Assembly (NCBI GenBank): GCA_016933955.1
Contig: JAFGTT010000030.1
Location: 21,362 to 85,361, forward strand
Length of the DNA: 64,000 nucleotides
Origin: Candidatus Zixiibacteriota bacterium
GTDB taxonomy: Bacteria; Zixibacteria; MSB-5A5; GN15; PGXB01
Reading direction: 5' to 3'
Shown here: positions 10,666 to 50,343 of the stretch, one piece after another
How positions within the stretch are numbered: the stretch's first letter is position 1
Layout: each line of letters begins with the position of its first letter
Made by a program: the position numbers and the translations under genes
Notes under the pieces: model-generated
The model's input: only the letters and a program-made list of their open reading frames with translations
Databases searched by the model: none
Told to the model about the DNA's origin: nothing

Positions 10666-12156
10666 TTGAAAAAGAGGTCGCGGTCTCTTTTGGGAACTGG
10701 TTTTCGCTATTTTTCCATCGTTTTATTCGCTGTCGTCTGTATTGTGACAGGAATAATTGTCGCCTCTAATCTTGATTTTACCAAGAAATCCGAAGCAACC
10801 ATGGCGCCCTCGCGCTATCCTGTGGTCGAGGATGAAAGCGGCGAAAGTACCTCACCCTTTGTCGAAGTGGTCAACCGGGTGAAGGATGCGGTGGTCAATA
10901 TTGTTGCCGAGCAGAGCGCCGGCAACAGCTACCATGACGATCTATTCTGGCGTTTCTTCAATATTCCCCAGGAACCGACTATGTCATCCGGTTCCGGCTT
11001 CTTCTTCCGGGATGACGGTTATGTTCTGACCAATTATCATGTGGTCAAAAACGCCCAGAAAGTCGAGGTGCGAACTTCCTCGGGTTATCGCTATGATGCC
11101 AAAATTATCGGGGTTGATCCCCAAACCGACCTGGCGGTTTTGAAGGTGGAACCGCAGGAAAAGATTACTACTATATCTTTCGGCAATTCCTCGAAAATCC
11201 GGGTTGGCGAATGGGCCATTGCAATCGGGAATCCTTTCCCTCAGCAGGGATTGGATCGGACGGTTACAGTCGGGGTAATCTCAGCCAAAGGCCGGAGCAA
11301 TCTTCGTTTCGGTGATGGAACGCCGAGTTACCAGGATTATATTCAGACTGATGCCTCGATTAACCCGGGTAATTCCGGAGGACCGTTGCTGAATATCAAG
11401 GGTGAGGCGATCGGGGTTAATGCCGCTATTTCGAGCCCGACCGGGGCTTCGGTTGGAATAGGTTTTGCCATTCCGATCAATCTGGCCCGGGCGATTGTTC
11501 CCGATCTGATTGCCACGGGTAAGGCCACCCGGGGCTGGCTGGGTGTCTATCTGGCCGATGTCAATGAAGCTCAGGCCCGTCAGCAGGGATTGGATGCCGT
11601 TAAAGGAGTGTTTATTCAATCTGTTTTCGAGGGTTCGCCGGCAGCTGTGGCCGGAATTCAGACCGGAGATATTTTGCTGTCGTTTAATGGCGAGGAAATT
11701 CTCGATTCCGACCAGTTTTCGGTACTGATATCAATGGCCCAGAAAAATAAGGAATCGGAAATCGAGCTGCTTCGCAACGGAAAAAAGATAACAACCCGGG
11801 CCGAGATTGTCGACCGGGATGAATATCAAAAAGCCCATGCCTCGCAGTTTCAGGATCCCTATCAGCAGGTTACCTGGCTGGGGATGGAGTTGTTGACATA
11901 TACCGAGAATATCGCCCGCCAGATAGGTTCGGACTATTATCCGGGCGTTTTCATAAATCGCGTGGCCCGCGGCTCGCAGGCATATGTGGCCGGAGTTATG
12001 CCCGGGTCGGTGATAACGCAGGTTGACAATGTCGAGGTAAAGAATCTGGCCGACCTGCAGCAAATCGCGGAGAAACTCAAGGATCGGAATCAGGCGATTC
12101 CGTTCCTTCTGGTGGATCCCCGCGGTTCGATTGAGTATAAGGCGATTAAGCCATAG
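10666..12156 (+). CDS. htrA: Periplasmic serine endoprotease of the DegP/HtrA family with two PDZ domains
   Basis: TTG start after GGAGGA, N-terminal TM/signal. Catalytic triad motifs TNYHVV (His), DLAVLKV (Asp) and GNSGGPL (Ser). Two PDZ-like segments (GVFIQSVFEGSPAA..., GVFINRVARGSQAY...). Confidence 0.85.
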   Translation: MKKRSRSLLGTGFRYFSIVLFAVVCIVTGIIVASNLDFTKKSEATMAPSRYPVVEDESGESTSPFVEVVNRVKDAVVNIVAEQSAGNSYHDDLFWRFFNIPQEPTMSSGSGFFFRDDGYVLTNYHVVKNAQKVEVRTSSGYRYDAKIIGVDPQTDLAVLKVEPQEKITTISFGNSSKIRVGEWAIAIGNPFPQQGLDRTVTVGVISAKGRSNLRFGDGTPSYQDYIQTDASINPGNSGGPLLNIKGEAIGVNAAISSPTGASVGIGFAIPINLARAIVPDLIATGKATRGWLGVYLADVNEAQARQQGLDAVKGVFIQSVFEGSPAAVAGIQTGDILLSFNGEEILDSDQFSVLISMAQKNKESEIELLRNGKKITTRAEIVDRDEYQKAHASQFQDPYQQVTWLGMELLTYTENIARQIGSDYYPGVFINRVARGSQAYVAGVMPGSVITQVDNVEVKNLADLQQIAEKLKDRNQAIPFLLVDPRGSIEYKAIKP

Positions 12157-14468: not shown

Positions 14469-14643
14469 TATCTTTTAAGCGCTTGGAAATTACTAAATTA
14501 CAGTATCAAAATTTTTCCGTTGCGGCTAATCTATACTATTTCGATTTTTTAGTCAAAGGAATTGTCTGTCAGCTGAATTGGCTTATGTCATAAAAATTCA
14601 CTTGCCAAGCGGGGCAAAATTGCTATTTTAATAGCCTGTTAAT

Positions 14644-14727
14644 GCCGAAGTGGTGAAACTGGTAGACACGCTGTGTTCAGGGCGCAGTGTCCTTACGGTC
14701 GTGGGGGTTCGAATCCCCCCTTCGGCA
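14644..14727 (+). tRNA. tRNA-Leu (anticodon CAG)
   Basis: Cloverleaf read by eye: acceptor GCCGAAG/CTTCGGC, D-arm GTGGTGAAACTGGTAGACAC, anticodon stem GCTGTG/CGCAGT with loop TTCAGGG (anticodon CAG), long variable arm typical of Leu, T-arm GGGGGTTCGAATCCCCC. No encoded CCA. Confidence 0.85.
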
Positions 14728-15086
14728 TTTTTCTTTTGGTTCATGTCAGTCTTTATCAAAAAATGATGATATCCCGGGATAAACGTCATTCAGCCTATTA
14801 TCGATGAATCGGCGCGCTCCGGCGAATTGATTGCAAAAACCCCCCAGCCATGACGCTTGATGAAATATTCATTTCCCTCAATCGTTGTTCGTGAAAACCG
14901 CAAGGTATCCATAGAAGGTTCGGCATTGAATCGAATCTGGTTGATAACCGGTTGGTAGTTGTCGGACTGGCGGTCGAAAGGCGGATAGAAATAATCCATG
15001 ATGGCAGTCAATGCTGTATCAAATCAATACAAACTCAAAAACAAAAAATTGTTGCGAATTGCCGGATTTGCCGACATATTATCGGC

Positions 15087-16481
15087 ATGGATTTTCCGAT
15101 GTTTTTCCTCGACTTTTTCGGCAATCGTATCCTGATTGCCGTCATAGCCATCGTCCATGTTTTCATCAATCACCCGCTGGCCGTGGGAGCCTATCCGCTG
15201 ATAACGCTGTTGGAATGGTGGGGAGTCCGCAAAGGTAATATGGAATGGGATCGGGTGGCATATAAAGTTACTTTCGTTCTTTTTGTTGTGACGACCACGG
15301 CCGGGGCGCTGACCGGGGTAGGAATCTGGTTCTCGACCGCACTTATTGCCCCCTTTGGAATCGGTAGCCTGCTGAGAGTGTTTTTCTGGGCCTGGTTTTC
15401 CGAATGGCTGGTTTTTATCAGTGAAGTGGTTCTTATCATGGTCTATTTTCTGACCTGGAAAAGGTGGGGGCAGGGAATATGGAAAAAAGTCCATATCGGA
15501 TTCGGGGCGGCCCTGAGTGCATTTTCCTGGCTGACAATGCTGATAATTGTGGCCATTTTGGGCTTTATGATGGGTTCGGGGTCATGGCCGGTGGAGCGGA
15601 CGTTATGGTCCGGAATCGCCAATCCTCTTTATCTCCCGCAACTGCTATTCCGGACGGCCTACGCAATGGGTCTGGCCGGATTGTGTATCTGGTTTCTGCT
15701 CTTTTTCTTCACCCGGAAAGGGAGCGAACTGCGGCAAAGGATGGTCCGGTTTGTGGGGATCTGGATGCTGGCCTGGGTGGCACCGCTTGTTGTCGGATCA
15801 TGGTGGTACTGGAAGGTAGTACCCGATTCAATGAAGGACAATATTGATGTCGGCCTGTTAACCCAGCGATTTATGCAGTGGCATGAGACTCTGGCGATCA
15901 TAATGATTGTGACTATTATTGCCCTGATGCTGGCGGCTCTTTTGGGAGTTATCAAACCCAGGTACATCACCGGGTTGGTGCTGGTGATTCCGTTTATTCT
16001 GGGATTATGGCTGCTGGGGCATTTCGAACGGGTAAGAGAGTTTATTCGCAAGCCCTATGTTATCGAGGATTACATGTATTCCAACGGGGTCAAAGTTTCT
16101 GATCTGCCGGTTTTTCAGCGGGATGGGATATTGCCTTATGCCACCTTTGTTCAGAATCACCAGGTGACTTCGAGTAACAAAATCGCGGCCGGGCGGGATG
16201 TTTTCCTGGTGGCGTGTTCGCGGTGTCATACCACCCGGGGTATTAATTCGATGATGACCAAGTTCAATAACCTGTACGGTCCGGGGGAATGGGACGAAAC
16301 GGCCATGACGGCTTTTATCCAAACCATGCATAACTCGCGGACCTATATGCCGCCATTTCCCGGAAATGATAAAGAACTCGAGGCGCTGGTGGCCTATTTA
16401 AAGGATTTCCGGAAAGATCCCAGGTTTATTGTGGGGGCCCATGCCGACTGGACGGTACCGCCCGGGGATGCAACACCTTAA
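15087..16481 (+). CDS. Cytochrome bd-like (CydA-family) membrane protein fused to a C-terminal monoheme cytochrome c domain
   Basis: The N-terminal helices align by eye to E. coli CydA: IVHVFINHPLAVG (H19 region), EWWGVRKGNMEWDRVAYKVTFVLF (compare ETVYV..KDMTKFWGKLF), and KVHIGFGAAL (compare KFVHTVASGY, H186). The C-terminus carries CSRCH plus a downstream Met (YMPPFPG), i.e. class I cytochrome c. Start placed at the first ATG, which has no strong RBS. Confidence 0.5.
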   Translation: MDFPMFFLDFFGNRILIAVIAIVHVFINHPLAVGAYPLITLLEWWGVRKGNMEWDRVAYKVTFVLFVVTTTAGALTGVGIWFSTALIAPFGIGSLLRVFFWAWFSEWLVFISEVVLIMVYFLTWKRWGQGIWKKVHIGFGAALSAFSWLTMLIIVAILGFMMGSGSWPVERTLWSGIANPLYLPQLLFRTAYAMGLAGLCIWFLLFFFTRKGSELRQRMVRFVGIWMLAWVAPLVVGSWWYWKVVPDSMKDNIDVGLLTQRFMQWHETLAIIMIVTIIALMLAALLGVIKPRYITGLVLVIPFILGLWLLGHFERVREFIRKPYVIEDYMYSNGVKVSDLPVFQRDGILPYATFVQNHQVTSSNKIAAGRDVFLVACSRCHTTRGINSMMTKFNNLYGPGEWDETAMTAFIQTMHNSRTYMPPFPGNDKELEALVAYLKDFRKDPRFIVGAHADWTVPPGDATP

Positions 16482-16507
16482 TTACGGATTGAGGATGAAG
16501 CCGAATA

Positions 16508-17920
16508 ATGATCGGGTTGATACATAAAGTGTTTCTGCCGCTGGCGATTCAGGTTCCGGTCCCGCGTGACCTGGAATTGAACCTGCCGCTGGGAGATTAC
16601 GAGTTAAAGATATTACTGGTGGTGCTGTTTCTGGCGCATATCCTGTTTGTCAATATGATGGTCGGCGGTTCGGTTTTCTCGGTAATTTTCGAGATAATCG
16701 GTCTGACCAATAGGAAGTACGATGCCCTGGCCAGGAAAATCGCGGAGACCATCACGGTCAACAAGAGCCTGGCGGTGGTACTTGGAGTGGGGCCGCTTTT
16801 ATGTATCAACCTGGTATATACGACCCATTTTTATTCGGCCAACGCCATTACCGGATATGCCTGGATTTCGATCATCCCGCTGGTGACACTGGCTTTTCTG
16901 CTGGCTTATATTCATAAGTACATGTGGGACAAATGGCGGGAGAAAAACAAGCGACTGCATCTTCTGGTGGGATCATTCGCGGCCATTCTGTTCCTTTCGA
17001 TTCCCTTTATTTTTCTGGCCAATATTAACCTGATGCTGTTTCCGGAGAAATGGCCGGAAGCGGCCGGATTCTTTTCATCGCTTCGGATCGGCAATGTCTT
17101 TCCGCGCTATTTCCATTTTCTGGCGGCGTCGCTGGCCCTGACCGGGCTGTTTCTGGCCGGGTGGTTCGGCCGGAAAGGATTCGATGTGGAGAAATTCCTT
17201 CCGGAATTCACCCGCCCGCAGTTACGGCGGTTGTTTTACAGGGCGGCTTTTTATATCACTCTGGCGCAACTTCTGTTCGGCCCGCTGTTGCTTTTCACCC
17301 TGCCCTATGACGGGATCAGCATGATAATGATTATGGTCATTCTGACCGGGGTAATCATTGCCCTGGTGGTGCTTTATATTCTGAGCCGGGAAATAAGAAA
17401 TGATAATATCCGGGTTGGGCATCATTATTTACTAATCTGGGGATTTTTCGGGCTGGTGGTGCTGGCGATGGGTACCGGACGGCATATTTACCGCGAAACC
17501 TGTTTGAATGACCACAAACAATTAATGGCCGATGAGACGGCCCGTTTTCGGGCCATTGAGACGGCGACACGGATGAGTATCGAGGCCGGATATGGAGCCG
17601 GAGAAGCGGTCGGTGGGGGAATGACGGGGGAAAAGGTGTTCCGCAACTGCGCGGCCTGCCATGCGGTCGATAAAGTCCTGGCGGCACCATCGCTGAGGGA
17701 GGTTTATTCCATTTACAAGGGCAATCCGGAAGGAATTGTTAAATGGGCATCGAATCCGGGGAAGAAGCGTCCGGAATTCGCACCGATGCCGTCTTTTGCT
17801 CATCTGGGCGAGGAGCAACTGGAAATGGTGGCGGAGTACATTCTTCAAATTGGGGCAGAAGATAATTCGGAAACAGTCGTCAAACAGCCCATATCCGATA
17901 CTACCTCAGATAAAAAATAA
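16508..17920 (+). CDS. Second cytochrome bd-like (CydA-family) membrane paralog with a C-terminal class I cytochrome c domain
   Basis: LAHILFVNMMVGGSVF resembles the CydA helix-1 His region. Multiple TM helices. C-terminal FRNCAACHAVD ... APMPSFAHLGEEQLEMVAEYI is a textbook monoheme cyt c. Located 26 nt after the previous gene. Confidence 0.45.
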   Translation: MIGLIHKVFLPLAIQVPVPRDLELNLPLGDYELKILLVVLFLAHILFVNMMVGGSVFSVIFEIIGLTNRKYDALARKIAETITVNKSLAVVLGVGPLLCINLVYTTHFYSANAITGYAWISIIPLVTLAFLLAYIHKYMWDKWREKNKRLHLLVGSFAAILFLSIPFIFLANINLMLFPEKWPEAAGFFSSLRIGNVFPRYFHFLAASLALTGLFLAGWFGRKGFDVEKFLPEFTRPQLRRLFYRAAFYITLAQLLFGPLLLFTLPYDGISMIMIMVILTGVIIALVVLYILSREIRNDNIRVGHHYLLIWGFFGLVVLAMGTGRHIYRETCLNDHKQLMADETARFRAIETATRMSIEAGYGAGEAVGGGMTGEKVFRNCAACHAVDKVLAAPSLREVYSIYKGNPEGIVKWASNPGKKRPEFAPMPSFAHLGEEQLEMVAEYILQIGAEDNSETVVKQPISDTTSDKK

Positions 17921-17980
17921 TTCTGCGGATCAAGACCAACACCACGATCGGTCATTGGTATATGAATGGTTAAAATCGCG

Positions 17981-18010
17981 GACAAAATAATAACTGCCAT
18001 CAGGGCAGTT
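17981..18010. terminator. Hairpin AACTGCC-ATCAG-GGCAGTT with flanking A/T runs, probable terminator at the end of the minus-strand ACIII operon
   Basis: 7 bp stem. On the minus strand it is followed by ATTATTTTGT. Sits in the 130 bp gap between convergent operons. Confidence 0.35.
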
Positions 18011-18050
18011 ACCGAAGTCGAAGATTTCTCGGCGCTATTAAAAAATCAGA

Positions 18051-18401
18051 TTAGTGCCTTGCGGCTTTGTCCTTCTTTTTCTGATAAGCTTCATCGGCCA
18101 GGATTTCCATGGCCCGCTCGATCGGAATCTGATAAATTCCTCCGGCCGAATCAAGTAACTTGTAGGTTGTTAGAATCTCGCTTTCATGCACCTTTAAATC
18201 CCGCAGATCGGTTGAACTGGGGCTTAGCACCCGGCTATAGGTTGCCTCTTCCTTGACCGCCGTAAAATAGTCAACCGCCCAGATAATGGCGGCCACAAAA
18301 ACCGTTACGGCCACAATCCCCCAGAAAATAACTTTTTTCACGCTGGCTTCGCCTTTGTCATAGCCGGGTTCGGAATTGGATGTGATATCGCTATCGGACA
18401 T
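18051..18401 (-). CDS. Small single-TM protein at the distal end of the ACIII operon (possible accessory ActG-like subunit)
   Basis: 116 aa, one TM helix (VIFWGIVAVTVFVAAIIWAV). Separated by only 9 nt from actF. Assignment is by position only. Confidence 0.35.
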   Translation of the reverse strand: MSDSDITSNSEPGYDKGEASVKKVIFWGIVAVTVFVAAIIWAVDYFTAVKEEATYSRVLSPSSTDLRDLKVHESEILTTYKLLDSAGGIYQIPIERAMEILADEAYQKKKDKAARH

Positions 18402-18410
18402 TGACTTTCC

Positions 18411-19595
18411 TCAATGATTGATAAAGTGTATTGATTTTTCCAAATCCGGATCACCAACCGGAACCAGAGGATGAGTGGTGGTTTTTCTCCAGAATATCCA
18501 GAAGAATACCCCGCCCAGGCCGATCACGGCCGTCAGATCAATCCATGACAGGCCAAATCCGGATTGGTGCAGAGTCGGTATGACGATCCAGTAAATGTCC
18601 ACCCAGTGCATGATCAGAATCCAGAATCCGATCAGCAACAGCATTGCCCGGTTTCGCTTAACTGCCTGGGGAAAGAGAAAGAAGAAGGGGAACACAAAAT
18701 GCCCGAAAACAAGAACCAGAGAGATTATTTTCCATGAGCCTTCCCAGCGGTGCAACATCCAGATCGTCTCCTCGGGAATATTGCCGTACCAGATCAGGAA
18801 GTACTGCGAAAAAGCCATATATCCCCAGAAAACGGTGAACGCAAACATCAGTTTACCCAAATCATGATAATGTTCCGGGGTTATGATTGCATCAAGAATG
18901 CCGTGACGGTGGAAAAGCATAACAATGACGGTTAACATGGCCAGCAGGGCCAGCAGGCCCCCGGAGAAAATGTAAACACCGAAAATAGTCGAATACCAGT
19001 GTGGTTCAAGCGACATCATCCAATCGAATGATGAAAAGGTCAGGGTAATGGCAAAAAGGATAATCCCGACAGCTCCGGCAACTTTGAATTTACGGGTCTG
19101 TTCCGGATGATAACCGGCATCCTGGGCCAGCGACAGGCGGTAAAGATAAACGGTCAGAATAATCCAGACGGCAAAATAAACAATGGCCCGGATAATAAAG
19201 AAACTCACATTGAGATAACCGGCCTTGGCCTGGAGCAGATGGTCCCCGGCGACGATTTCGGGATGGCTCCAGTGAAAGACATGGTGAATCCCCGGAAGCA
19301 CCGGAATAAAGAAAAGAGCCATAATCGGGATGACGGCCATAATATTTTCAGAGAGCCGCCGTAGAACAACACTCCATCTGGCACCGACCAGGTGATGAAG
19401 CATGGTAAAAAAGAGCCCGCCAAGAGCGATTGACAACCAGAATATGTACGCGGTTAAATAAGAGAAATAGAATTGATCGCTGTTGACTAAATATCCGATT
19501 GCGGTCAGGATCAATCCCGAAACCGCCAGAAAAGCCGCAATTTTCCCGGTGTTACCGGCGGTAGTCAGACGGTATGTTTGGCGGTTGAATTCCAT
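18411..19595 (-). CDS. actF: Alternative complex III subunit ActF (NrfD/PsrC-like polytopic membrane subunit)
   Basis: 394 aa, ~10 TM helices. NrfD-like. Last large gene in an actABCDEF-ordered cluster. Confidence 0.7.
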   Translation of the reverse strand: MEFNRQTYRLTTAGNTGKIAAFLAVSGLILTAIGYLVNSDQFYFSYLTAYIFWLSIALGGLFFTMLHHLVGARWSVVLRRLSENIMAVIPIMALFFIPVLPGIHHVFHWSHPEIVAGDHLLQAKAGYLNVSFFIIRAIVYFAVWIILTVYLYRLSLAQDAGYHPEQTRKFKVAGAVGIILFAITLTFSSFDWMMSLEPHWYSTIFGVYIFSGGLLALLAMLTVIVMLFHRHGILDAIITPEHYHDLGKLMFAFTVFWGYMAFSQYFLIWYGNIPEETIWMLHRWEGSWKIISLVLVFGHFVFPFFFLFPQAVKRNRAMLLLIGFWILIMHWVDIYWIVIPTLHQSGFGLSWIDLTAVIGLGGVFFWIFWRKTTTHPLVPVGDPDLEKSIHFINH

Positions 19596-19600
19596 ATGGC

Positions 19601-20233
19601 CTATTTGATTCTATCCCTCAATTCCACCGGCACATCATCGACACCGGCTTTCTGGCTTAGCTGCAGGGCCCGCAGATAAGCCACAATGGTCCAGCCGTCA
19701 TCGGCCGGAATCTGGTGGCTGTAAGATGGCATGTTGCCGAAGCCGTTGCTGATGACATCAAAAATCTGTCCGTCCGGTATGGATCGAATACGATCGGTAT
19801 GGAACGACGGCGGCGGAACATAGCCCCGGCTTAGCATGATTCCTTTGCCATCGCCAAGACGGCTGTGACAGGGAGAGCAATAAATATCAAAGCGTTCATG
19901 GCCTCTTCGGAGTAACTCCATGGTGATTGGAATCGGATTTTCCTTCACGAATTCACCGGTTGGTTTTTTCCCTTGATAAAAGACGATATTATCCCGCAAC
20001 TGACCATGTGCCACGGTTCCGGCGGCCGGTACCCGCATACTGGCGCTGTCGGCAAAAAAATTACTCTCGCTCTGGGGTCGGTATTTCGGCTGGTGGTCCA
20101 TATTGGGATTGACGTGGATCGGCGTCCGCGTCGACGGCCTTTCCCGGGCGCATCCGGCCATAAAAGCGGCCATAAATATGAGAACCATGATTGTCCAAAA
20201 AACCATGAGCATATTTTTATTCAAACGGTTCAT
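19601..20233 (-). CDS. actE: Alternative complex III subunit ActE (monoheme cytochrome c lipoprotein)
   Basis: Signal peptide with lipobox (FMAGC). Single CSPCH heme motif. ~210 aa, as for ActE. Confidence 0.75.
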   Translation of the reverse strand: MNRLNKNMLMVFWTIMVLIFMAAFMAGCARERPSTRTPIHVNPNMDHQPKYRPQSESNFFADSASMRVPAAGTVAHGQLRDNIVFYQGKKPTGEFVKENPIPITMELLRRGHERFDIYCSPCHSRLGDGKGIMLSRGYVPPPSFHTDRIRSIPDGQIFDVISNGFGNMPSYSHQIPADDGWTIVAYLRALQLSQKAGVDDVPVELRDRIK

Positions 20234-20784
20234 TCTCCGCTCAAGACCTCCACATTTTTGCCACCAATTGATTCCAGAAAAATGCGGCTTTGCTCGATAT
20301 GGAATTTCGGATCGGCCGCTTCAAGACTGATAAAGAAGCCATCATCAGTAGCGCGAACAAAATTGTCGGAATAAAAAACCGGGTGATGAAATCTGGGCAG
20401 GCCGTTGATCGCCAGCATACCGATCAGGGCGGCGAAAGCCGAAAACACGACTCCAAGGGCAAAAGTCACCGGGACATAAGCCTGGTAACTGAAGAATGGT
20501 TTGCCGGATATAACCAGGGGATAGTCGATGGTGCTGGTCCACCATTGAAGCGCCAGGGCACCGGAAGTCCCGATCAACGCGGCCAGGCCGATAATCCAGC
20601 CCAGCGGGGAACGCTTCAGGCCCATTGCCCGATCCATGCCATGGATGGGGAAAGGAGAATGGCAATCGAATTTTCGATACCCTGCTTCGCCGGTTTTTCG
20701 AGCGGCCTCCATCAGGACCGCCGGACTGTCGAACTGAGCCAGAAGCCCCTGGATTTTCATTTGATTACTCATGACCACCTCCAT
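20230..20784 (-). CDS. actD: Alternative complex III subunit ActD (two-TM membrane subunit)
   Basis: 184 aa with two predicted TM helices. Positioned between actC and actE. Overlaps both neighbours by 4 and 20 nt. Confidence 0.65.
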
Positions 20785-22156
20785 GCGGTACCTCCGCCTC
20801 AGGCAGAACCGTCTTCACTTCGGCCATCGAAATCATCGGTAAAAATCTGATGAACAGAAGGAAGAGCGTGAAAAATAGACCGAACGACCCGACGAAAATA
20901 CTTATATCCCAGATGGTCGGGCTGTAATAATCCCAGTTGGCCGGGAGAAAATCCCGGGCCAGGGATGTCACCACAATTACAAAGCGCTCGAACCACATGC
21001 CGACATTGATCAGGATTGAGGCAATGAACAGGACCGGGATACTGGTGCGCAGTTTTTTAAACCAGAACAATTGCGGGACGAGAACATTACAGGTTATCAT
21101 GATCCAGTAGGCCCAGGCGTACTGGCCGAAGGCGCGGTTCATGAATACGAATTGCTCATATATATTGCCGCTGTACCAGGCAATGAAAAATTCCATGCTG
21201 TAAGCATATCCGACCATGGTACCGGTAAGCAGAATAACCTTGGTCATTTTTTCGAGGTGGTTGAGGGTAATGATATCCTCCAGGTGGAAAATTTTGCGCG
21301 CGATAATGGTTAGGGTGATGACCATGGCAAACCCGGAGAAAATCGCCCCGGCGACGAAGTAGGGCGGAAAAAGAGTCGTATGCCAGCCGGGCAGAATGCT
21401 GACGGCGAAGTCGGTCGAAACCACACTATGTACGGAAAGAACCAGCGGCGTGGAAATACCGGCCAGTATAAGATAAGCCAGTTCGTAATGCCGCCACTGG
21501 CGATTACCTCCGCGCCACCCGACCGCCAGAATACCGAATATAATTTTCTTGATTTTATTCTTGGCGCGATCACGGAAAGTAGCCAGATCCGGGATCAGTC
21601 CGGTGTACCAGAATAGCAGCGAGGCGATGAAATAGGTGCTGACCGCGAAAACGTCCCAGAGCAGGGGAGAACGGAAATTGGGCCACATATTCATTTGGTT
21701 GGGCAGCGGAAACATCCAGTACACCACCCAGATCCGCCCGACATGGATGGCCGGGAAAATCAGGGCGCAGGAGATAGCAAAAAGAGTCATGGCTTCGGCG
21801 AAGCGATTTATGGAAGTCCGCCAGCGCTGACGCAACAGGAAAAGAATAGCCGAGATCAGGGTTCCGGCATGACCGATACCGACCCACCAGACAAAATTGA
21901 TAATTGCCCAGCCCCAGCCAACCGGATTATTCAATCCCCAGATGCCGATGCCCTCGTAAACCAGGTAGCCGATCGATCCGAGAAGCACCATCAGAAGCGA
22001 AAGAGCGGCCCCCATGGCCAAAAACCAGACTCGCGGGGTCCGGCGCTCGACAATACCGGAGATTTTGTCGGTAATGCTCCTGAAGGTCTGGTGGCCGGTT
22101 ATAAGGGGCGGATCATGCTCCGGCAATCCGGCCGCATTTCTGGCAATGGTATCCAC
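20765..22156 (-). CDS. actC: Alternative complex III subunit ActC (NrfD-like quinol-interacting membrane subunit)
   Basis: 463 aa polytopic NrfD/PsrC-family protein immediately downstream of actB. Confidence 0.8.
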
Positions 22157-22159
22157 TAA

Positions 22160-25100
22160 TTAACCCTGTTCCGCTTTATCATTATTATCCATACCTTCCG
22201 CCAGTTTCAGATTAGGATTCCGCAGTCTGGCCAGGTATGAATTTCGCGGGCGAACATTGAGTTCGACCAGCAGTTCATAGTTGCGATCCATTTTCTTTAA
22301 AGCTGTCACGGCACTCGAAGTATCGTTGATATTCCCGAAGGTGATGGCTCTGGTCGGGCAGGCCTGCTGACAGGCGGTTATTATTTCACCGTCGCGGACA
22401 GCGCGATTCTCCTTTTTGGCGGCCTGTTTGGCACGATTGATCCGCTGGATGCAGAAAGTACATTTTTCCATGACGCCGCGAGAACGAACGGTGACATCCG
22501 GGTTCTGGGCCATCTTGACGGTTTCCGGTAGCCTATTAGTATAATTGAAGAAATTGAATCTTCGTACTTTATACGGGCAGTTGTTGGAACAATACCTGGT
22601 TCCGATACAACGATTATAGGTCATATTGTTCAATCCCTCGCGGTCATGAACGGTGGCGGCGACCGGGCAGACTGCCTCGCAAGGCGCATTTTCGCATTGC
22701 TGGCAGGGAACCGGTTGATGAACCATGCCGGGATGGTCCATGTCGCCGGAGAAATAGCGATCGATTCTGATCCAGTGCATCTCCCGTCCGCGGTAAACCT
22801 GTTCTTGACCTACGATCGGAATATTATTCTCGCTCTGGCAGGCAATGGTGCAGGCATCACATCCGATACAGGTATTCAGATCGATAACCATACCCCATTG
22901 ATAACCGGTGCTGTAATCATGATCGGGATATATCGACTTTAAGGAGGGGTGCTCTACCATTTCAGATACGAATCCGGGGTTACTGCGATACTCCTCAAGA
23001 GTGGCCTCGCCGACCAGCGGTCGGCCTTCCATAAGATTGTGATCCTGAGTATTGGCCAAGCGGCTTACCCGATCCGTTTGAGTAACATTTGCGCCCTTTA
23101 TAAATGACATCCCGGCCGCAGTTCGTAAACGATAGGTATCGACTCCGACCCCATCGGCCACCCGGCCAACTTTATCACGACCGTAACCCAGAGGGAGAAC
23201 AACGGTCCGATCGGCAATTCCCGGAACGATCCAGACCGGGATTTCGATTTCGAGGGAATTCAATCCCAAGCTGACGATATCATTATTTCCCACCTCCAGG
23301 GTTGCCGCCGTTTGGGGATTTATCAGGGCGGCGTTGGACCAGGCCAGCTTGCTGACCGAATGCGGCAATTCCTGGAGCCAGCCATTGTTGGCATAACGGC
23401 CGTCATACAGATACGATGGATAAAAGCCCAGCTCAAGCTCATCGGATGAATCCTTTGATGAATCCGGAAGATTTTCAAAAACGGCCCCGAAATTTTTAAG
23501 TGGCCGGAACCCGTATGATAATAACGGTTCGGTTTTAAGCAAGCCTTCATGAAGAACCCGGCGCCATCTATTCTCGAAATCACCTCCGTTCAGAATATTG
23601 CCCCAGGTTTCACGAACGATATCATAACCTCGCTGATCCCGCCCGGTCGCCATCAGGGAGTACATTTCGCTGTCGGAATGAGCACCATAAAGCGGCTCGA
23701 TCATCGGTTGAATGATGCCGACCGTACCATCGGCGGCACGGACATCACCCCAGCTTTCAAGATAATGAGCACGGGGAATATGCCACTCGCATTTTTGCGA
23801 AGTTTCATCGTAATATTCACTGAAATGAATATTGTGTTCTATCTTTTGAATCGCTTCGCCGAAATTCAGATCAACCGGGGCATTGTATACCGGATTACCG
23901 CCCAGGATGACCAGGGTGTCGACTTTGCCGGCCGCAATGGCATCGATCATTGTTTTCAACTGCCCGGTGTCTGATCGGGATGTGTCCCTCATCGGGATTA
24001 AATCCATGGTCCGCCCGATATTGCCCAGGGCATTATTCAATAGCAGTACCAATTCATGAACCTGAGCGGGTTGACGCCGACCCGCGACCACCAGATTGGC
24101 CCCTTTATTGGCCATCAAATCCTCGGCCAGAGCAGAAATCCATGATATGTCAAAAGTCTCATGATATTCCGCGATATTTCCGCTGATATCGAGACCGCGC
24201 TTCTGAAGTTCCTTCAGCAGGGTCGAGAGAAAGGCGTCGATCCGGCTGCTTTGAATGGCATACCGATGGTCAGCCATGCCGCCGGTTATGGTAAAGGCGC
24301 TTTCAACCACATACAGACGGTTCATGCTGTCGTCCGTATTATTCATCCGCCGCCCGTCGGCAAACTCGCGCGCCGCCCTCAAAGCCTCACTCTCAGTCTG
24401 AAGAAAATCGGAATCGAGAGAAAGTATTACCGAAGCCAGGTCATATTTGTAAATCGGTCTTAAGTCGTTTCCGGTCAGATTTTTAACAGCCCCGAGTATA
24501 TTTTCATCACTTATTGGTTCATAGCTGACCCATTTTGCTTTCGGGAAAGCCTTCAGTATCTCGGTTTTCAGGCGGGCCAGAGTGGGCGAGGAGAATTCTT
24601 CTGATATAAACGCCAGGCCATCGCCCTTATTTGCGATAAACTTATCATGCAGTTCCCGCCAAACCGTGACAAAGGTATCATACGTGACTTCAACGTTACG
24701 ATTTCGAGCCATCTTCGAGCGATCCGGATCGTAGAGGCCAAGGGTCGAGGACTGGATAAAAAGGCCGGTAGCTCCGCCGGTGGAGGAGTGGACCGGATTC
24801 CCCTCGACTTTGGTCGGCCGTCCCTCATGACATTCGACGATCAATCCGAAAGCCGACAGTCCCAGCGGCATCGAGGTGGCGTAATACTGCGGGACTCCCG
24901 GAATAATCTCCTCGGGCTGGGAAACGTAGGGAATGATTTTTTCCACCGGTTTGCGGCATCCGGCCAATCCGGCCAGCGCCAGGGAAGCGGCCATAACCGT
25001 CAGAAAATCACGCCGGGTTACGGTATTATCATCATGATGATTATCCCGGTCACGATATTGCTCCAGAAGATGCCGGCGATACCGCGGCGTGCATTTAAGC

Positions 25101-25174
25101 TGATCCAGACTGGTCCAGTAATATGTATTGGTCTTTTTCATATCCCTATCACTCATCGGTGACATCCCGAACAA
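22160..25174 (-). CDS. actB: Alternative complex III subunit ActB (fusion of a molybdopterin-oxidoreductase-like B1 domain and an iron-sulfur B2 domain)
   Basis: 1004 aa. Tat signal (TRRDFLTVMAASLALAGLAGC). Large MopB-like domain. C-terminal four-cluster ferredoxin-like region (CIGCDACTIACQSEN, CQQCENAPCEAVCP, CIGTRYCSNNCP, CTFCIQR). Confidence 0.85.
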   Translation of the reverse strand: MFGMSPMSDRDMKKTNTYYWTSLDQLKCTPRYRRHLLEQYRDRDNHHDDNTVTRRDFLTVMAASLALAGLAGCRKPVEKIIPYVSQPEEIIPGVPQYYATSMPLGLSAFGLIVECHEGRPTKVEGNPVHSSTGGATGLFIQSSTLGLYDPDRSKMARNRNVEVTYDTFVTVWRELHDKFIANKGDGLAFISEEFSSPTLARLKTEILKAFPKAKWVSYEPISDENILGAVKNLTGNDLRPIYKYDLASVILSLDSDFLQTESEALRAAREFADGRRMNNTDDSMNRLYVVESAFTITGGMADHRYAIQSSRIDAFLSTLLKELQKRGLDISGNIAEYHETFDISWISALAEDLMANKGANLVVAGRRQPAQVHELVLLLNNALGNIGRTMDLIPMRDTSRSDTGQLKTMIDAIAAGKVDTLVILGGNPVYNAPVDLNFGEAIQKIEHNIHFSEYYDETSQKCEWHIPRAHYLESWGDVRAADGTVGIIQPMIEPLYGAHSDSEMYSLMATGRDQRGYDIVRETWGNILNGGDFENRWRRVLHEGLLKTEPLLSYGFRPLKNFGAVFENLPDSSKDSSDELELGFYPSYLYDGRYANNGWLQELPHSVSKLAWSNAALINPQTAATLEVGNNDIVSLGLNSLEIEIPVWIVPGIADRTVVLPLGYGRDKVGRVADGVGVDTYRLRTAAGMSFIKGANVTQTDRVSRLANTQDHNLMEGRPLVGEATLEEYRSNPGFVSEMVEHPSLKSIYPDHDYSTGYQWGMVIDLNTCIGCDACTIACQSENNIPIVGQEQVYRGREMHWIRIDRYFSGDMDHPGMVHQPVPCQQCENAPCEAVCPVAATVHDREGLNNMTYNRCIGTRYCSNNCPYKVRRFNFFNYTNRLPETVKMAQNPDVTVRSRGVMEKCTFCIQRINRAKQAAKKENRAVRDGEIITACQQACPTRAITFGNINDTSSAVTALKKMDRNYELLVELNVRPRNSYLARLRNPNLKLAEGMDNNDKAEQG

Positions 25175-25800
25175 TCCACCGGTGGATTGATATTGAGTTC
25201 ATTTTTTAGCCGCTCAGCAAACTGCAACTGGCTTTCGGGTGGCGCCCAGCCCATATTGGTCAACTCCTCGTGCGGGCGCAGATATAGATCGGGATTGCGA
25301 TGGCAATCCAGGCACCAGGACATGCTCAACGGCTGTTTTTGCTGGACCACAACCATTTCACCCACATTATCATGACAGCTGAAACATCCCACCCCGGCTC
25401 GGAGATGAGCGCTATGATCGAAATAAACGTAATCCGGCAGCATATGCACCCGGATCCAGCGCATCGGCTCTTTTTTCCCCCAGCTTTCGCGGATCGGCAA
25501 CAGACGGTCGCTGTCGGGCAGAATCAGCGTGTGGCAGTTCACGCAGGTCTGGGTCGGAGGAACATTGGCTACCGGCGATAATTCCACGGCGTTGTGGCAG
25601 TACCGGCAATCCAGCCCCAGGTCACCGGCATGCAGTTTATGACTGTACGGAACCGACTGAAGCGGCCGGTAGCCGACATCGGTGTACCACGGCGAAAAGA
25701 AATACCAGACGAAAGCGACCACCGCCACGATTTTAATCACCACTATAACAGCCGCATAAGTGGGGAGTCTATTAGTCCATTTTGGAAAAATCTGAGCCAA
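25153..25800 (-). CDS. actA: Alternative complex III subunit ActA (membrane-anchored pentaheme cytochrome c)
   Basis: N-terminal TM anchor. Five CxxCH motifs (CRYCH, CVNCH, CFSCH, CLDCH, CSGCH). 215 aa. First gene of the operon. Confidence 0.8.
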   Translation of the reverse strand: MAQIFPKWTNRLPTYAAVIVVIKIVAVVAFVWYFFSPWYTDVGYRPLQSVPYSHKLHAGDLGLDCRYCHNAVELSPVANVPPTQTCVNCHTLILPDSDRLLPIRESWGKKEPMRWIRVHMLPDYVYFDHSAHLRAGVGCFSCHDNVGEMVVVQQKQPLSMSWCLDCHRNPDLYLRPHEELTNMGWAPPESQLQFAERLKNELNINPPVDCSGCHR

Positions 25801-44272: not shown

Positions 44273-45694
44273 TTACCAGTCGGTCTTTATATTAACGAAA
44301 AGCGTCTTGCTGTCGCGATAAATGAAGAAGATAGCTTCTTCCGGCTTATCCTGGGCGAGCCTGGCAAAGGCCGTCTTGGCATCGATTACCGATGTTATTT
44401 TTTCTCCACCGATGGATTGGATAATATCGCCGGGGAACATCCCGCCGACCGAAGCCCAGCCACCCGGCTCAACTTCCTTAACCACTACCCCCTTAAAGGA
44501 ACGCTCGAGATTAAGAACGCTGTAATCAGCAAAAACCATGTCCCGGACGGTAAGTTCGAAATCGTCATTCTCATAATCGGGAGCTTCGGCCGGACTGATC
44601 GGAGCCTGGGCCAGAATAACATGGATATCCAGAGTGTCGATTTGACCGTCCAAACGACGCAGGATTTCAAAATCGATCGGGACTCCGGCCCCCATCTCGG
44701 ATATTTTTTTCTGAAAAATGGGCAGGTTATCTTCTTTATTAACTTCAATCGGTGTTCCCTGGAGACTGATAATAATATCGCCGGTCTTTATTCCGGCCGA
44801 ATCGGCCGGGGAATCCTTGACCACTTCATTGACAATGATTCCTCCCGGCGAGGTAATTCCCCAGAATTCCGCAATATCCGATGTCAGGGCCTGAAGGTAA
44901 ATACCCAGCCAGCCGCGATCAACTTTGCCTTGTTTGGGCGGATTTTCGATAAGCTTATTAAGCCGTTCGGCATCAATCAGTCCCAGTAAAGGCATGAAAT
45001 CATCAAATTGAGAAAACGATTCCATCATCCGCGAAGCATCGAAACCGCTTAAGGCGGGGTTTTCAAGATTACCCAGGACTCCAACCGCATTTCCCGAAGT
45101 GTCGTACATGATCGAAGTCAATTGCAGGGAGTTAAAACCGACCGTCAGAACGAATTCCTCGGGTGCACTGATATTGGCCGATACCAGGCCGATATCGGCA
45201 CCGAGATCGGGAGTCACGAAATCAGGAAGCAGGTAGTAAATCAACAACCATTCGCCAAGTCTGAATTTACCTCGACCTCTAAATTTGACATAGTCGAACT
45301 TGCGGTTATCGGAGGCGGTAATACGGCAGAAACCGATTTTGGTGAAACGATCGACCCCGATGAATTCGGCGGGATATTTGGTTCCATCCATCATGGTAAT
45401 TTCGATACTTTTCGGTTCGGCGCTGACCTGCATCCCGGCCATAGCCGACAAAGGATCATCGCTGTTAACAGAAGTGCCATCGAATAGAACCAATCCATCG
45501 GAGGAAACAACAGCTCCGATACCGCGGCTTTCGGCCTCGGTCGTTTGCATTCCAAACGAAACCTCGATCACCAGATCAACGGCAACGGTGTATTTCTCGG
45601 CATCCTGATAAATCCGATCGAAATTAAAATTCTGAGCCGAAACTGATCCGGCGGCGAGAATTATCAGGGCGGCTATTGAGAATATTGTTTTCAC
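44273..45694 (-). CDS. HtrA-like protein with two PDZ domains but a degenerate trypsin-like domain (predicted inactive pseudo-protease)
   Basis: Signal peptide. The protease-domain scaffold aligns to the downstream HtrA, but the His region reads LFDGTSV (not TNYHV) and the Asp region reads TKIGFCRI (not TDIAVIKL). PDZ motifs are retained (GWLGIYLQ ... GIKTGDIIISL). Confidence 0.5.
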   Translation of the reverse strand: MKTIFSIAALIILAAGSVSAQNFNFDRIYQDAEKYTVAVDLVIEVSFGMQTTEAESRGIGAVVSSDGLVLFDGTSVNSDDPLSAMAGMQVSAEPKSIEITMMDGTKYPAEFIGVDRFTKIGFCRITASDNRKFDYVKFRGRGKFRLGEWLLIYYLLPDFVTPDLGADIGLVSANISAPEEFVLTVGFNSLQLTSIMYDTSGNAVGVLGNLENPALSGFDASRMMESFSQFDDFMPLLGLIDAERLNKLIENPPKQGKVDRGWLGIYLQALTSDIAEFWGITSPGGIIVNEVVKDSPADSAGIKTGDIIISLQGTPIEVNKEDNLPIFQKKISEMGAGVPIDFEILRRLDGQIDTLDIHVILAQAPISPAEAPDYENDDFELTVRDMVFADYSVLNLERSFKGVVVKEVEPGGWASVGGMFPGDIIQSIGGEKITSVIDAKTAFARLAQDKPEEAIFFIYRDSKTLFVNIKTDW

Positions 45695-45695
45695 C

Positions 45696-47093
45696 TTATT
45701 GCTCCTCTATATTTTCTTCTTCAGCTTTACTTTGATGATCCACCTTGATCAACACGAATTTGATACTGCCGAAGTGTTTGACGGTTAACAGCACTTTCTT
45801 AGCTTCGGCCGACACCAGTTCATTGTAATTATCGACAAAGACTGAAAATTGCAGGGTCGGTTCCTCGTTGATCCCACGGATGACGTCCCCCGAGCGTAAC
45901 CCGGCTTCCTCGGCCGCACTGACCCGTTTGACCCCCGAGACAAAAACTCCCAGGGTATCCTCGAGTTGATTTTCCACCGCCATCTGTTTGGTGATGGCTT
46001 TGACCGTGAAGCCCCATTCCTTGCACTCCAGGTCTTCTCCCATGATTTCACCAAGAGCATGGGTGATAACATCGACATATATGGTCCGGTCATTACGCAT
46101 CACCGTCAATTCGATCCGGGAGCCAACCGGGCGGTCGGCGATTAATTTATAAAAAGCCGGAAGCTGTTCATCAAAACGGGCCGAAACCGGCTGGTTATCG
46201 ACCTTGAGAATAATATCCCCGGCCTGTAACCCGGCTTCCTCGGCCGGTGATTTTGAATCAATTGAAGCCACCAGGACGCCTTCATCGCGGTTGGTTCCAA
46301 ACCATCCCTCAAGATCCTGAAGGCTCTGACACTGGACGCCAATCCAGCTTCTGGTTACTTTGCCGTCCTTGAGAATCGCATCGATAACTTCCCGGACAAT
46401 ATTGCTCGGAATGGAAAAACCGATGTTGTTGGCGAACAGGGTGGCCCTGGAATTTATGCCGACAATGCGGCCCTTTAAATCGACCAGCGGGCCTCCGGAA
46501 TTGCCGGGATTGATGGCGGCGTCGGTTTGAATCCAGTTATTATAAATACCGGTTCTTTCGCCGGTTGGCAGACGGGTTTCGCCGGAAAAATAGCGATCGG
46601 TCGTCGAAATGACCCCCGACGATACTGAACGGGCCAGCGCCAGAGGAGAACCCATGGCCAGAACGAATTGCCCGACCTGGACCGAATCAGAATTGCCGAA
46701 TTCGGCAGTCTCGATGGTTCCCTTGTACTTCGAAAGATCAAGCTTGATAACGGCAATATCAGTAAGAGGATCGCCGCCGATAAGTTCGGCTTTAACCTGT
46801 TCTTTATCATATAAGGTACAAATAATCCTCTCGGCCTTTCCGGCTACATGATAATTGGTAACGACATAACCATCCTTGTGAAAGATGACCCCGGAACCGA
46901 CCACCGACTGCTTTCTCATTTTACCTGTCCGAAAATCCGTAATCACCGGTTGAATATGAACCAGGGCGGGCAAAACCTTATCCCGGGCCTTGTAAATATC
47001 ATTTTGCATGGAAAGAGGCGGTCCGGCCAGGACCGGGATCGACAGGAAAAATGTCAGGAATAATGCCGCTATCTGTTTCATCATGTACCTCAT
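45696..47093 (-). CDS. htrA: DegP/HtrA-family periplasmic serine protease with two PDZ domains
   Basis: TNYHVAG (His), DIAVIKLD (Asp) and GNSGGPLVD (Ser). Two PDZ domains. Signal peptide. Confidence 0.85.
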   Translation of the reverse strand: MRYMMKQIAALFLTFFLSIPVLAGPPLSMQNDIYKARDKVLPALVHIQPVITDFRTGKMRKQSVVGSGVIFHKDGYVVTNYHVAGKAERIICTLYDKEQVKAELIGGDPLTDIAVIKLDLSKYKGTIETAEFGNSDSVQVGQFVLAMGSPLALARSVSSGVISTTDRYFSGETRLPTGERTGIYNNWIQTDAAINPGNSGGPLVDLKGRIVGINSRATLFANNIGFSIPSNIVREVIDAILKDGKVTRSWIGVQCQSLQDLEGWFGTNRDEGVLVASIDSKSPAEEAGLQAGDIILKVDNQPVSARFDEQLPAFYKLIADRPVGSRIELTVMRNDRTIYVDVITHALGEIMGEDLECKEWGFTVKAITKQMAVENQLEDTLGVFVSGVKRVSAAEEAGLRSGDVIRGINEEPTLQFSVFVDNYNELVSAEAKKVLLTVKHFGSIKFVLIKVDHQSKAEEENIEEQ

Positions 47094-49776: not shown

Positions 49777-50343
49777 TCAAAATGGGCGGAGCTTCTTTTT
49801 AAGAAGCTCCCGGGCCCGGAAAATACGGGCTTTTACCGTTCCTATCGGAATATCCAGTGCTTCAGCTATTTCTTCGTACGATTTATTGTCCTTATGACGG
49901 TAAATAATAACCATTCGGTATTTCTGAGGCAGAGAGTCAATAGCATCGTTGATCGACAGGCGGCGTTCGCTATCGAGAAGATCTCTTTCGGGATTATGAG
50001 TCTCATCCGGAACCTCGATTTCAATCTGCCCATCGGTCGTTTCAGTCGGAGTGTCGAGCGACAGGGTTCGGATACGCTGCTTGCGCAGGTGATCGATGGC
50101 GCAGTTAGCCCCGATGCGATAGAGCCAGGTCGAAAACTTGTATTCCGCCCGGTATGAGTGAAGTGATGCAAATGCCTTCATAAACGTCTCCTGGACCAGG
50201 TCAGCGGCGGTTTCTTTGTCGCGGACAATCTTGAAGACAATATGAAAAATCGCCCGCTGATGCCGATCCATCAGTTTCCGATAAGCTCCCTGGTCACCGC
50301 CAAGGGCGCTGTCGATCAAAGCCTTGTCCGTCTCGGGCACCAT
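49777..50343 (-). CDS. ECF-type RNA polymerase sigma factor (sigma-70 regions 2 and 4)
   Basis: 188 aa. Region 2.2 FHIVFKIVRDKETAADLVQETFMKAF. Region 4 HTH YEEIAEALDIPIGTVKARIFRAR. Confidence 0.8.
   Translation of the reverse strand: MVPETDKALIDSALGGDQGAYRKLMDRHQRAIFHIVFKIVRDKETAADLVQETFMKAFASLHSYRAEYKFSTWLYRIGANCAIDHLRKQRIRTLSLDTPTETTDGQIEIEVPDETHNPERDLLDSERRLSINDAIDSLPQKYRMVIIYRHKDNKSYEEIAEALDIPIGTVKARIFRARELLKKKLRPF

Follow-up and report, generated by a model that had tools for sequence, protein, structure and literature searches.

A 64-kb stretch of a Zixibacteria genome (contig JAFGTT010000030.1, positions 21,362 to 85,361; hereafter the window) encodes two consecutive membrane proteins that each end in a cytochrome c domain, and the question raised by this locus is what kind of enzyme such a pair forms. 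An initial annotation, made from the DNA letters and their open reading frames (ORFs), had placed both proteins in the CydA family of cytochrome bd-type oxidases. The bd superfamily is one of only three enzyme lineages known to reduce O2 to water, and to our knowledge all of its characterized members are quinol oxidases. We find that the pair almost certainly belongs to the OR-C class of this superfamily, as one OR-C1a and one OR-C1b subunit, and we give a probability of about 60% to the reading that the two act as a heterodimer reducing O2 with electrons supplied by cytochrome c.

ORF calling places the upstream gene (ORF1) at 15087–16481 on the plus strand, where it encodes an OR-C1a-type subunit of 464 amino acids, composed of a CydA-like domain with eight transmembrane (TM) helices and a C-terminal periplasmic monoheme cytochrome c domain. 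The downstream gene (ORF2; 16508–17920, plus strand) encodes an OR-C1b-type subunit of 470 amino acids, an eight-helix CydA paralog that stands in the place of CydB and likewise carries a C-terminal monoheme cytochrome c domain. The coordinates of both ORFs and the length of ORF2 agree with those given initially, whereas ORF1 comprises 464 residues plus a stop codon and not 465 residues. Only 26 nt separate the two genes, and both frames are uninterrupted. Each protein is 100% identical to an entry of the nr database assigned to “candidate division Zixibacteria” whose name reads just “c-type cytochrome” or “cytochrome c”, and a database search returned more than 1800 relatives of equal length and architecture for ORF1 and more than 1200 for ORF2. 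As so many relatives share this length and architecture and the frames are uninterrupted, the fusions are genuine and not frameshift artifacts, which answers the concern that the c domains might stem from mis-joined reading frames; the fused architecture is common to hundreds of genomes. A longer, TTG-initiated version of ORF1 starting at 14952 was rejected, the M-D-F-P start at 15087 being nearly invariant across the family. The nr version of ORF1 (P0001, 460 amino acids) begins four codons downstream (window 15087–15098) with MFFLDFF, and given the near invariance of the M-D-F-P start, the database has probably called this start wrongly. On the plus strand, too, a tRNA-Leu(CAG) gene (14643–14728) precedes ORF1 by ~360 nt.

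A class I cytochrome c domain is the sole domain recognized by Pfam and NCBIfam in either protein. That of ORF1 spans 16179–16403 on the plus strand (PF13442, residues 365–439, E = 3e-9), with the CSRCH motif at residue 377 (nt 16215–16229) and a distal M421, and that of ORF2 spans 17624–17848 on the plus strand (PF00034, residues 373–447, E = 1.4e-8), with CAACH at residue 381 (nt 17648–17662) and a distal M427. There is one CxxCH motif per protein, and the heme c residues C377, C380, H381, and M421 of ORF1 and C381, C384, H385, and M427 of ORF2 are invariant in the respective family alignments, confirming the C-terminal CxxCH–Met domains that the initial annotation had named. The distal methionine of both domains sits in an MPxF-type motif, and the domain of ORF2 is c552/c555-like, its profile matching cytochromes c555 and c552 in the Protein Data Bank (PDB).

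In the AlphaFold2 models of both proteins, eight TM helices are followed by a small helical domain. The N terminus of CydA is periplasmic, and loop charges in ORF1 and ORF2 obey the positive-inside rule for such an N-out orientation, with 2–7 lysine or arginine residues in each of the loops TM1–2, TM3–4, TM5–6, and TM7–8 and few in the alternate loops. With the N terminus outside and an even number of helices, the c domains of both subunits are predicted to be periplasmic, the location required for c-type heme attachment and the one that the initial annotation had asked to be verified.

Because the domain libraries saw only the c domains, family profiles and structural models were needed to identify the membrane parts. 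An alignment of 35 ORF1 relatives with at least 53% identity to ORF1, drawn from Zixibacteria, Acidobacteriota, Planctomycetota, and other groups (A1), was searched as a profile against PDB sequences and retrieved CydA of Geobacillus thermodenitrificans (5doq_A) with an E-value of 9.7e-11; the match covers residues 13–222 of ORF1 and 10–222 of CydA, i.e., TM1–5. The profile of the ORF2 family (A2) reached only cytochrome c matches among PDB sequences and did not find CydA directly. It aligned to the ORF1 profile over TM1–5 with an hhalign probability of 98.2% (E = 3.7e-14) and to a Geobacillus CydA fragment with a probability of 83% (E = 9e-6). The models, built from A1 and A2, are of fair confidence (ORF1: pLDDT 80.4, pTM 0.75; ORF2: pLDDT 83.8, pTM 0.72) and were compared with the PDB via Foldseek. 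All 19 best matches of ORF1 are chains of bd oxidases, CydA ranking before CydB, and the best of them is again 5doq_A (E = 7e-6, TM-score 0.58–0.62, 388 aligned columns); the ten best matches of ORF2 are all CydA chains. ORF1 and ORF2 are thus CydA-superfamily membrane proteins and paralogs of each other, as had been claimed from the alignment of their first helices. The NrfD-like identity considered as an alternative did not emerge: NrfD-type ActC chains match the ORF1 model only with E-values of 2.9–4.1 and TM-scores of 0.32–0.37, and neither protein has a Pfam match to PF03916 (NrfD).

Eight residues are invariant among the 35 ORF1 sequences (H24, E106, E113, H136, F188, R189, E318, and R321), and the HMMER alignment to 5doq_A allows most of them to be placed. 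H24 in TM1 (codon 15156–15158, plus strand), already noticed initially as the helix-1 histidine, stands opposite Geobacillus H21, which corresponds to H19 of E. coli, and would by this alignment be equivalent to the axial ligand of an active-site heme. E106 and E113 (15402–15425, plus strand) align with Geobacillus E101 and E108, equivalent to E99 and E107 of the E. coli proton channel. They are separated by six residues, a spacing that is the signature of the qOR2/3/4a and OR-type clades, i.e., those other than qOR1 (Murali, Gennis & Hemp 2021; bioRxiv 10.1101/2021.01.16.426971, later ISME J). H136 aligns with Geobacillus H128, the TM4 histidine H126 of E. coli. It is this residue, and not the heme b558 ligand H186, that lies in the KVHIGFGAAL segment formerly matched to the H186 region. 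Opposite H186, the histidine is absent and the invariant residues F188 and R189 are found (15648–15653, plus strand); no equivalent of M393 is identifiable in ORF1. As the AlphaFold2 model ends TM6 at residue 244 and starts TM7 at residue 266, leaving a periplasmic loop of only ~20 residues, ORF1 has no Q-loop. The proposed check of heme ligands and Q-loop hence gives a divided outcome, with the TM1 histidine and the proton-channel glutamates retained and the b558 histidine and the Q-loop lost.

At the periplasmic end of TM8, E318-F-I-R321-K (16038–16052, plus strand) is a candidate equivalent of E. coli E445/R448. The surrounding motif F-E-R-x-R-E318-F-x-R321-K-P (FERxREFxRKP) is invariant in the ORF1 family and resembles Geobacillus A-E378-V-G-R-Q-P-W-I-L-R-G-Y-M, which contains the counterparts of E445 and R448 in the region of the second active-site heme ligand. 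A role of E318 as ligand of the second active-site heme is plausible but unproven.

ORF2, which stands where CydB would be expected, has no proton channel. Its H44 is invariant and aligns with both Geobacillus H21 and H24 of ORF1, and the equivalent of H126 is kept as H151. The proton-channel positions, read from the alignment to the Geobacillus CydA fragment, are occupied by V/T and A, as expected since the “b” subunits of this class usually lack E99 and E107. Invariant in the family alignment are H44, H151, H203, R200, R325, Y328, and R329; H203 and R200 lie in TM5, and the end of TM8 carries the motif RHxYRE (R325-H326-x-Y328-R329-E330). From these residues, ORF2 may bind a heme of its own. 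An ungapped register with ORF1 puts H203 on the heme b558 position H186, and attempts to align H203 or RHxYRE with H186 or E445 gave nothing usable.

This combination of features corresponds to a class that has been described phylogenetically. Murali et al. (2021) divide the bd superfamily into the groups qOR, OR-C, and OR-N. OR-C1a designates eight-helix CydA proteins that have no quinol site and carry a C-terminal periplasmic heme c extension, and OR-C1b an eight-helix paralog encoded beside OR-C1a; the electron donor proposed for OR-C is cytochrome c. Their OR-C1a reference has H24, E105, E112, H131, F183 at the H186 position, and no M393 (Table S6), OR-C is recorded in Zixibacteria (Table S3), and monoheme OR-C1a proteins are listed for Hydrotalea, Chitinophaga, Lysinibacillus, Hydrogenobacter, and others (Table S7). 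One of the listed monoheme proteins, LX80DRAFT_01144 of Hydrotalea sandarakina DSM 23241, is encoded on scaffold00003.3, and on this same scaffold (locus L070 of our set) we found a full-length ORF1 homolog with 52% identity followed by an ORF2 homolog; from the shared scaffold, the ORF1 homolog is probably LX80DRAFT_01144. The assignment to OR-C1a and OR-C1b follows from the same residue pattern, the presence of the L070 scaffold in Table S7, and the record of OR-C in Zixibacteria. Shared with the published class are the eight helices and the C-terminal periplasmic CxxCH domain, the adjacent “b” paralog without a proton channel, H24, the glutamate pair six residues apart, the phenylalanine at H186, and the absence of M393 and of a Q-loop; nothing essential differs in the window pair. 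The fusions that had been called catalogued but uncharacterized are thus the OR-C1a and OR-C1b proteins of that survey, which counted 532 OR-C sequences in 24,706 genomes. A bd-I cryo-EM paper of 2026 cites OR-C merely as a phylogenetic category.

To place the pair in its genomic context, relatives of ORF1 were located in a scan with one genome per species, which contained at least 539 species with such a relative; the counts below refer to the best 80 loci of the scan with flanks of 10 kb. They cover at least eight phyla, among them Zixibacteria, Planctomycetota, Acidobacteriota, Verrucomicrobiota, Elusimicrobiota, Bacteroidota, KSB1, and Omnitrophota. An ORF2 homolog lies directly downstream of the ORF1 homolog in 78 of the 80 loci, and the stop codon of the first gene often overlaps the start codon of the second. 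Of the other two, one ORF1 match runs into the contig end (L045) and one is followed by ~2.5 kb of sequence that contains no ORF2 match (L067). The tandem arrangement, initially thought to be unusual, is therefore the norm. No CydB gene was seen in the 80 loci, and the earlier statement that none adjoins the pair holds, the downstream gene being a CydA paralog. A conserved third gene, such as a CydX-like gene, a donor cytochrome, or CydDC, was sought around the pair in these loci and none was found. All-against-all clustering of neighbors retrieved as recurrent only generic two-component regulators and an antisense ORF artifact of high-GC genomes.

In Geothrix sp. PMB-07 (CP132333.1; locus L081, 8067–13431), genes for a HisKA sensor kinase and for a response regulator of the sigma54 type immediately precede the pair, and a cytochrome c7-like gene immediately follows it. 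Verrucomicrobial loci, L080, L063, and L022 among them, have similar kinase and regulator genes ahead of the pair. These arrangements suggest a dedicated regulation of the pair in some lineages.

In the window, the pair is convergent with an operon for alternative complex III (ACIII), actABCDEF (18411–25800, minus strand), identified via Pfam domains. It comprises actA (25153–25800, c7-type domain), actB (22160–25174, Fe-S and molybdopterin-like domains), actC (20765–22156, NrfD), actD (20230–20784, PF11821, E = 2e-61), actE (19601–20233, monoheme c), and actF (18411–19595), all on the minus strand, the last being identified from its position and its homology with the act clusters of five of the 80 loci (L005, L034, L037, L038, and L079). 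Between actF and the pair, an ORF of 116 amino acids with one hydrophobic, predicted TM stretch follows on the minus strand (18051–18401). Its homolog occupies the same place after actF in L005 (36% identity, E = 2e-17), and by this conservation it is probably an unannotated small accessory subunit of ACIII. A 96-amino-acid ORF on the plus strand (17966–18256) was discarded as spurious, as it has no family match and overlaps the conserved 116-amino-acid ORF.

Besides the window, ACIII is found within 10 kb of the pair in the same five loci. In L005, which is Zixibacteria-like, and in L038 and L079, both from Planctomycetota, the act operon is convergent with the pair as in the window. In two Elusimicrobiota loci (L034, 2371–12846; L037, 2527–12777), actA to actF and the pair share one strand, with the OR-C1 pair in the place after actF. 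In L037, stop and start codons of successive act genes overlap or abut, those of OR-C1a and OR-C1b overlap, and ~300 nt lie between actF and OR-C1a. Counting the window, ACIII and the pair thus occur together in three different arrangements. By our own rough estimate (a target of ~27 kb in a genome of ~4 Mb), ~0.5 adjacencies would be expected by chance in 80 loci. Adjacency in five loci from three phyla suggests a functional link, albeit one far from universal. The ACIII neighborhood that had been highlighted initially is consequently not a conserved one, being shared by five of the 80 loci and, among other Zixibacteria-like loci, by L005 only; a search for co-occurring act genes points to a recurrence above the estimated chance level in three phyla and to no regular partnership. 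The catalog of Murali et al. (2021) contains no mention of an ACIII link.

We propose the following mechanism. ORF1 and ORF2, whose co-assembly is predicted, would form a cytochrome c-dependent, non-pumping O2 reductase. Electrons from periplasmic or membrane-bound c-type cytochromes would enter via the fused heme c domains, which would functionally replace quinol and heme b558, and would pass on to a high-spin heme pair in the TM1–4 bundle of ORF1, ligated by H24 and probably E318. At this di-heme site, O2 would be reduced to water with protons drawn from the cytoplasm via E106 and E113, so that a proton-motive force would be generated by charge separation and not by pumping. Electron input from c-type cytochromes, as had been suggested from the fusion as such, is the sensible reading because both CydB and the features of a quinol site are missing.

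As for the donor in the window organism, ActE or ActA of the adjacent ACIII would be plausible candidates, giving a chain from menaquinol through ACIII and heme c to the bd-like site and O2 that would be suited to micro-oxic sediment; that ACIII is the main donor there is possible, with the odds somewhat against it. No heme-copper oxidase genes are encoded in the 64-kb window. The more far-reaching proposal, that ACIII and OR-C1 constitute a dedicated menaquinol-to-O2 chain without a heme-copper oxidase, possibly as a supercomplex, and that both subunits carry b-type hemes, strikes us as unlikely, and it is clearer in Elusimicrobiota with their actABCDEF-OR-C1a-OR-C1b cluster than in the window organism. 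The b-type heme sites would in that case be provided by H44, H203, and RHxYRE in ORF2 and by H24 and E318 in ORF1. If true, OR-C1 would be a multi-heme machine, with two hemes c and b-type hemes in both subunits, wired unlike the characterized oxidases.

Comparison with known systems helps to delimit what is distinctive here. With canonical CydAB (E. coli bd-I, 6RKO/6RX4; Geobacillus, 5DOQ), the pair shares the CydA fold, the TM1 histidine, the proton-channel glutamates, the H126-equivalent histidine, and a pseudo-symmetric design of two subunits. It differs in that ORF1 lacks the His/Met ligands of heme b558 and the Q-loop, a cytochrome c domain stands in for TM9, a c-fused CydA-like protein replaces CydB as second subunit, and the expected electron donor is cytochrome c and not quinol. 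CydAA' of Caldivirga maquilingensis (qOR4a/qOR4b) is likewise built from two CydA paralogs, the second without proton channel and quinol site, and it shows that O2 can be reduced by a bd-type enzyme that has a CydA paralog instead of CydB and only b hemes. Unlike the window pair, its CydA still oxidizes quinol (H210 and M334 are present), and the enzyme carries no heme c domains. With regard to ACIII, act operons also adjoin terminal oxidases in the ACIII–caa3/aa3 clusters and supercomplexes of Rhodothermus marinus, Flavobacterium johnsoniae (6BTM), and the first Zixibacteria genome, RBG-1, where ACIII is clustered with an aa3-type oxidase, and the eight-gene cluster of Elusimicrobiota mirrors the ACIII–caa3 clusters of other phyla. 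Here, however, the oxidase is bd-like and not of the heme-copper type, the two units of the window are convergent and not co-transcribed, and the adjacency is confined to ~6% of loci.

Several observations weigh against cytochrome c-fed O2 reduction or against its individual parts. PF01654 (CydA) stays below threshold on ORF1 and ORF2 in the Pfam search, weak precomputed matches being present in a few ORF2 relatives. As to the equivalence of E318 to E445, the A1 profile matches EVGRQPWILRGYM (EVGRQPW region) of the Geobacillus C-terminal fragment over a local stretch of 15 columns with an hhalign E-value of 0.043 and a probability of 1.2%, and a sub-profile of TM7–8 of the ORF1 family (A3) found no CydA in the PDB. 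Moreover, the OR-C1a reference, from Desulfovibrio, is listed as lacking E445 (Murali et al. 2021, Table S6), whereas the invariant FERxREFxRKP of the present clade may correspond to E445/R448. The profile search retrieved no OR-C chain from the PDB, and full-text literature searches found no biochemical or structural work on OR-C after the 2021 catalog and no report of a purified enzyme. With respect to the donor, a CxxCH-encoding neighbor occurs in nine of the 80 loci, which is near background, no c-type cytochrome is conserved next to the pair, and 75 of the 80 loci, including nearly all other Zixibacteria, have no ACIII within their 10-kb flanks. Finally, members of the OR-C1 family are also present in strict anaerobes, Desulfovibrio for instance (Table S7), and its role may therefore be detoxification of O2 or reactive oxygen species or the turnover of another substrate.

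That last point leads to the contender that OR-C1 is a cytochrome c-fed scavenger or reductase of O2 traces, H2O2, NO, or another oxidant, serving protection and not energy conservation. Canonical bd oxidases do have protective side activities, the family is frequently found among Desulfovibrionia, Sulfurospirillum, and further anaerobic or microaerophilic groups, the genes form a free-standing two-gene module with no fixed donor gene, and the kinase and sigma54-type regulator upstream of the pair in some lineages would befit a stress-induced or conditional system. On the other hand, the proton-channel glutamates and the TM1 histidine are invariant, as they are in energy-conserving bd oxidases, the family extends to obligate aerobes, among them Chitinophaga, Hydrotalea, and Lysinibacillus, and the operon-like joining of the pair with ACIII in Elusimicrobiota points to a respiratory chain, so that on balance we hold a protective role to be rather improbable. 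Less probable still is a transmembrane electron conduit, in which hemes in both subunits would connect periplasmic c-type cytochromes with the quinone pool or a partner on the cytoplasmic side. The seven invariant residues of ORF2, kept despite the loss of the proton channel, suggest cofactors of its own, and two c domains per complex exceed the needs of a simple oxidase; yet there is no recognizable quinone site, ORF1 lacking the Q-loop and equivalents of H186 and M393, the residues conserved in ORF1 are exactly the ones that make up the core in which bd oxidases reduce O2 and deliver protons, and no gene for a cytoplasmic partner is conserved nearby.

Superfamily homology and fold could also be accommodated by an ordinary quinol-oxidizing enzyme of the CydAB type to which cytochrome c domains have been added. 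Such an enzyme is difficult to reconcile with an invariant phenylalanine in the place of the b558 histidine in ORF1, with the missing Q-loop, with a CydA paralog instead of CydB as partner, and with the sub-threshold scores of PF01654 on both proteins, and we consider it highly improbable. At the far end stands the view that the proteins are not bd-like at all, being NrfD-like or otherwise polytopic, or artifacts of a frameshift by which separate cytochrome c genes became joined. The lack of a Pfam match in the membrane domain and the NrfD-containing complex next door could be cited in its favor. It is, however, incompatible with the profile match of ORF1 to CydA, with the Foldseek ranking of CydA far ahead of ActC, and with the recurrence of the same fused architecture and length in the 80 loci and in hundreds of genomes, and both identities are practically ruled out. 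Cytochrome c-fed O2 reduction by the OR-C1 heterodimer thus remains our preferred reading.

Away from the pair and the act operon, the window encodes a secreted subtilase of 1265 amino acids with five PKD domains and a Por_Secre_tail, a sorting domain of type IX secretion (56707–60504, minus strand), which would fit the presence of an FCB-group-like secretion system in this member of Zixibacteria. Two genes for HtrA/DegP-type serine proteases with PDZ domains are located at 10666–12156 (plus strand) and 45696–47093 (minus strand). The ORF at 44273–45694 (minus strand) has PDZ-domain matches only, and an ECF-type sigma factor is encoded nearby at 49777–50343.

The window pair is an instance of a known, catalogued class and adds no new one. 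What the locus contributes is a residue map of the monoheme clade, a candidate motif for the second heme ligand, and evidence of ACIII as an at least occasional upstream partner, and it makes the pair a well-defined target with which the idea of a cytochrome c-dependent bd-type oxidase could first be put to the test biochemically. If O2 reduction fed by cytochrome c proves true, OR-C would represent the first cytochrome c oxidases built on a bd scaffold. Because genes of the OR-C type are routinely mis-annotated as “c-type cytochrome”, the capacity for O2 respiration is probably under-called in phyla of sediments and soils such as Zixibacteria, Acidobacteriota, Planctomycetota, and Verrucomicrobiota.

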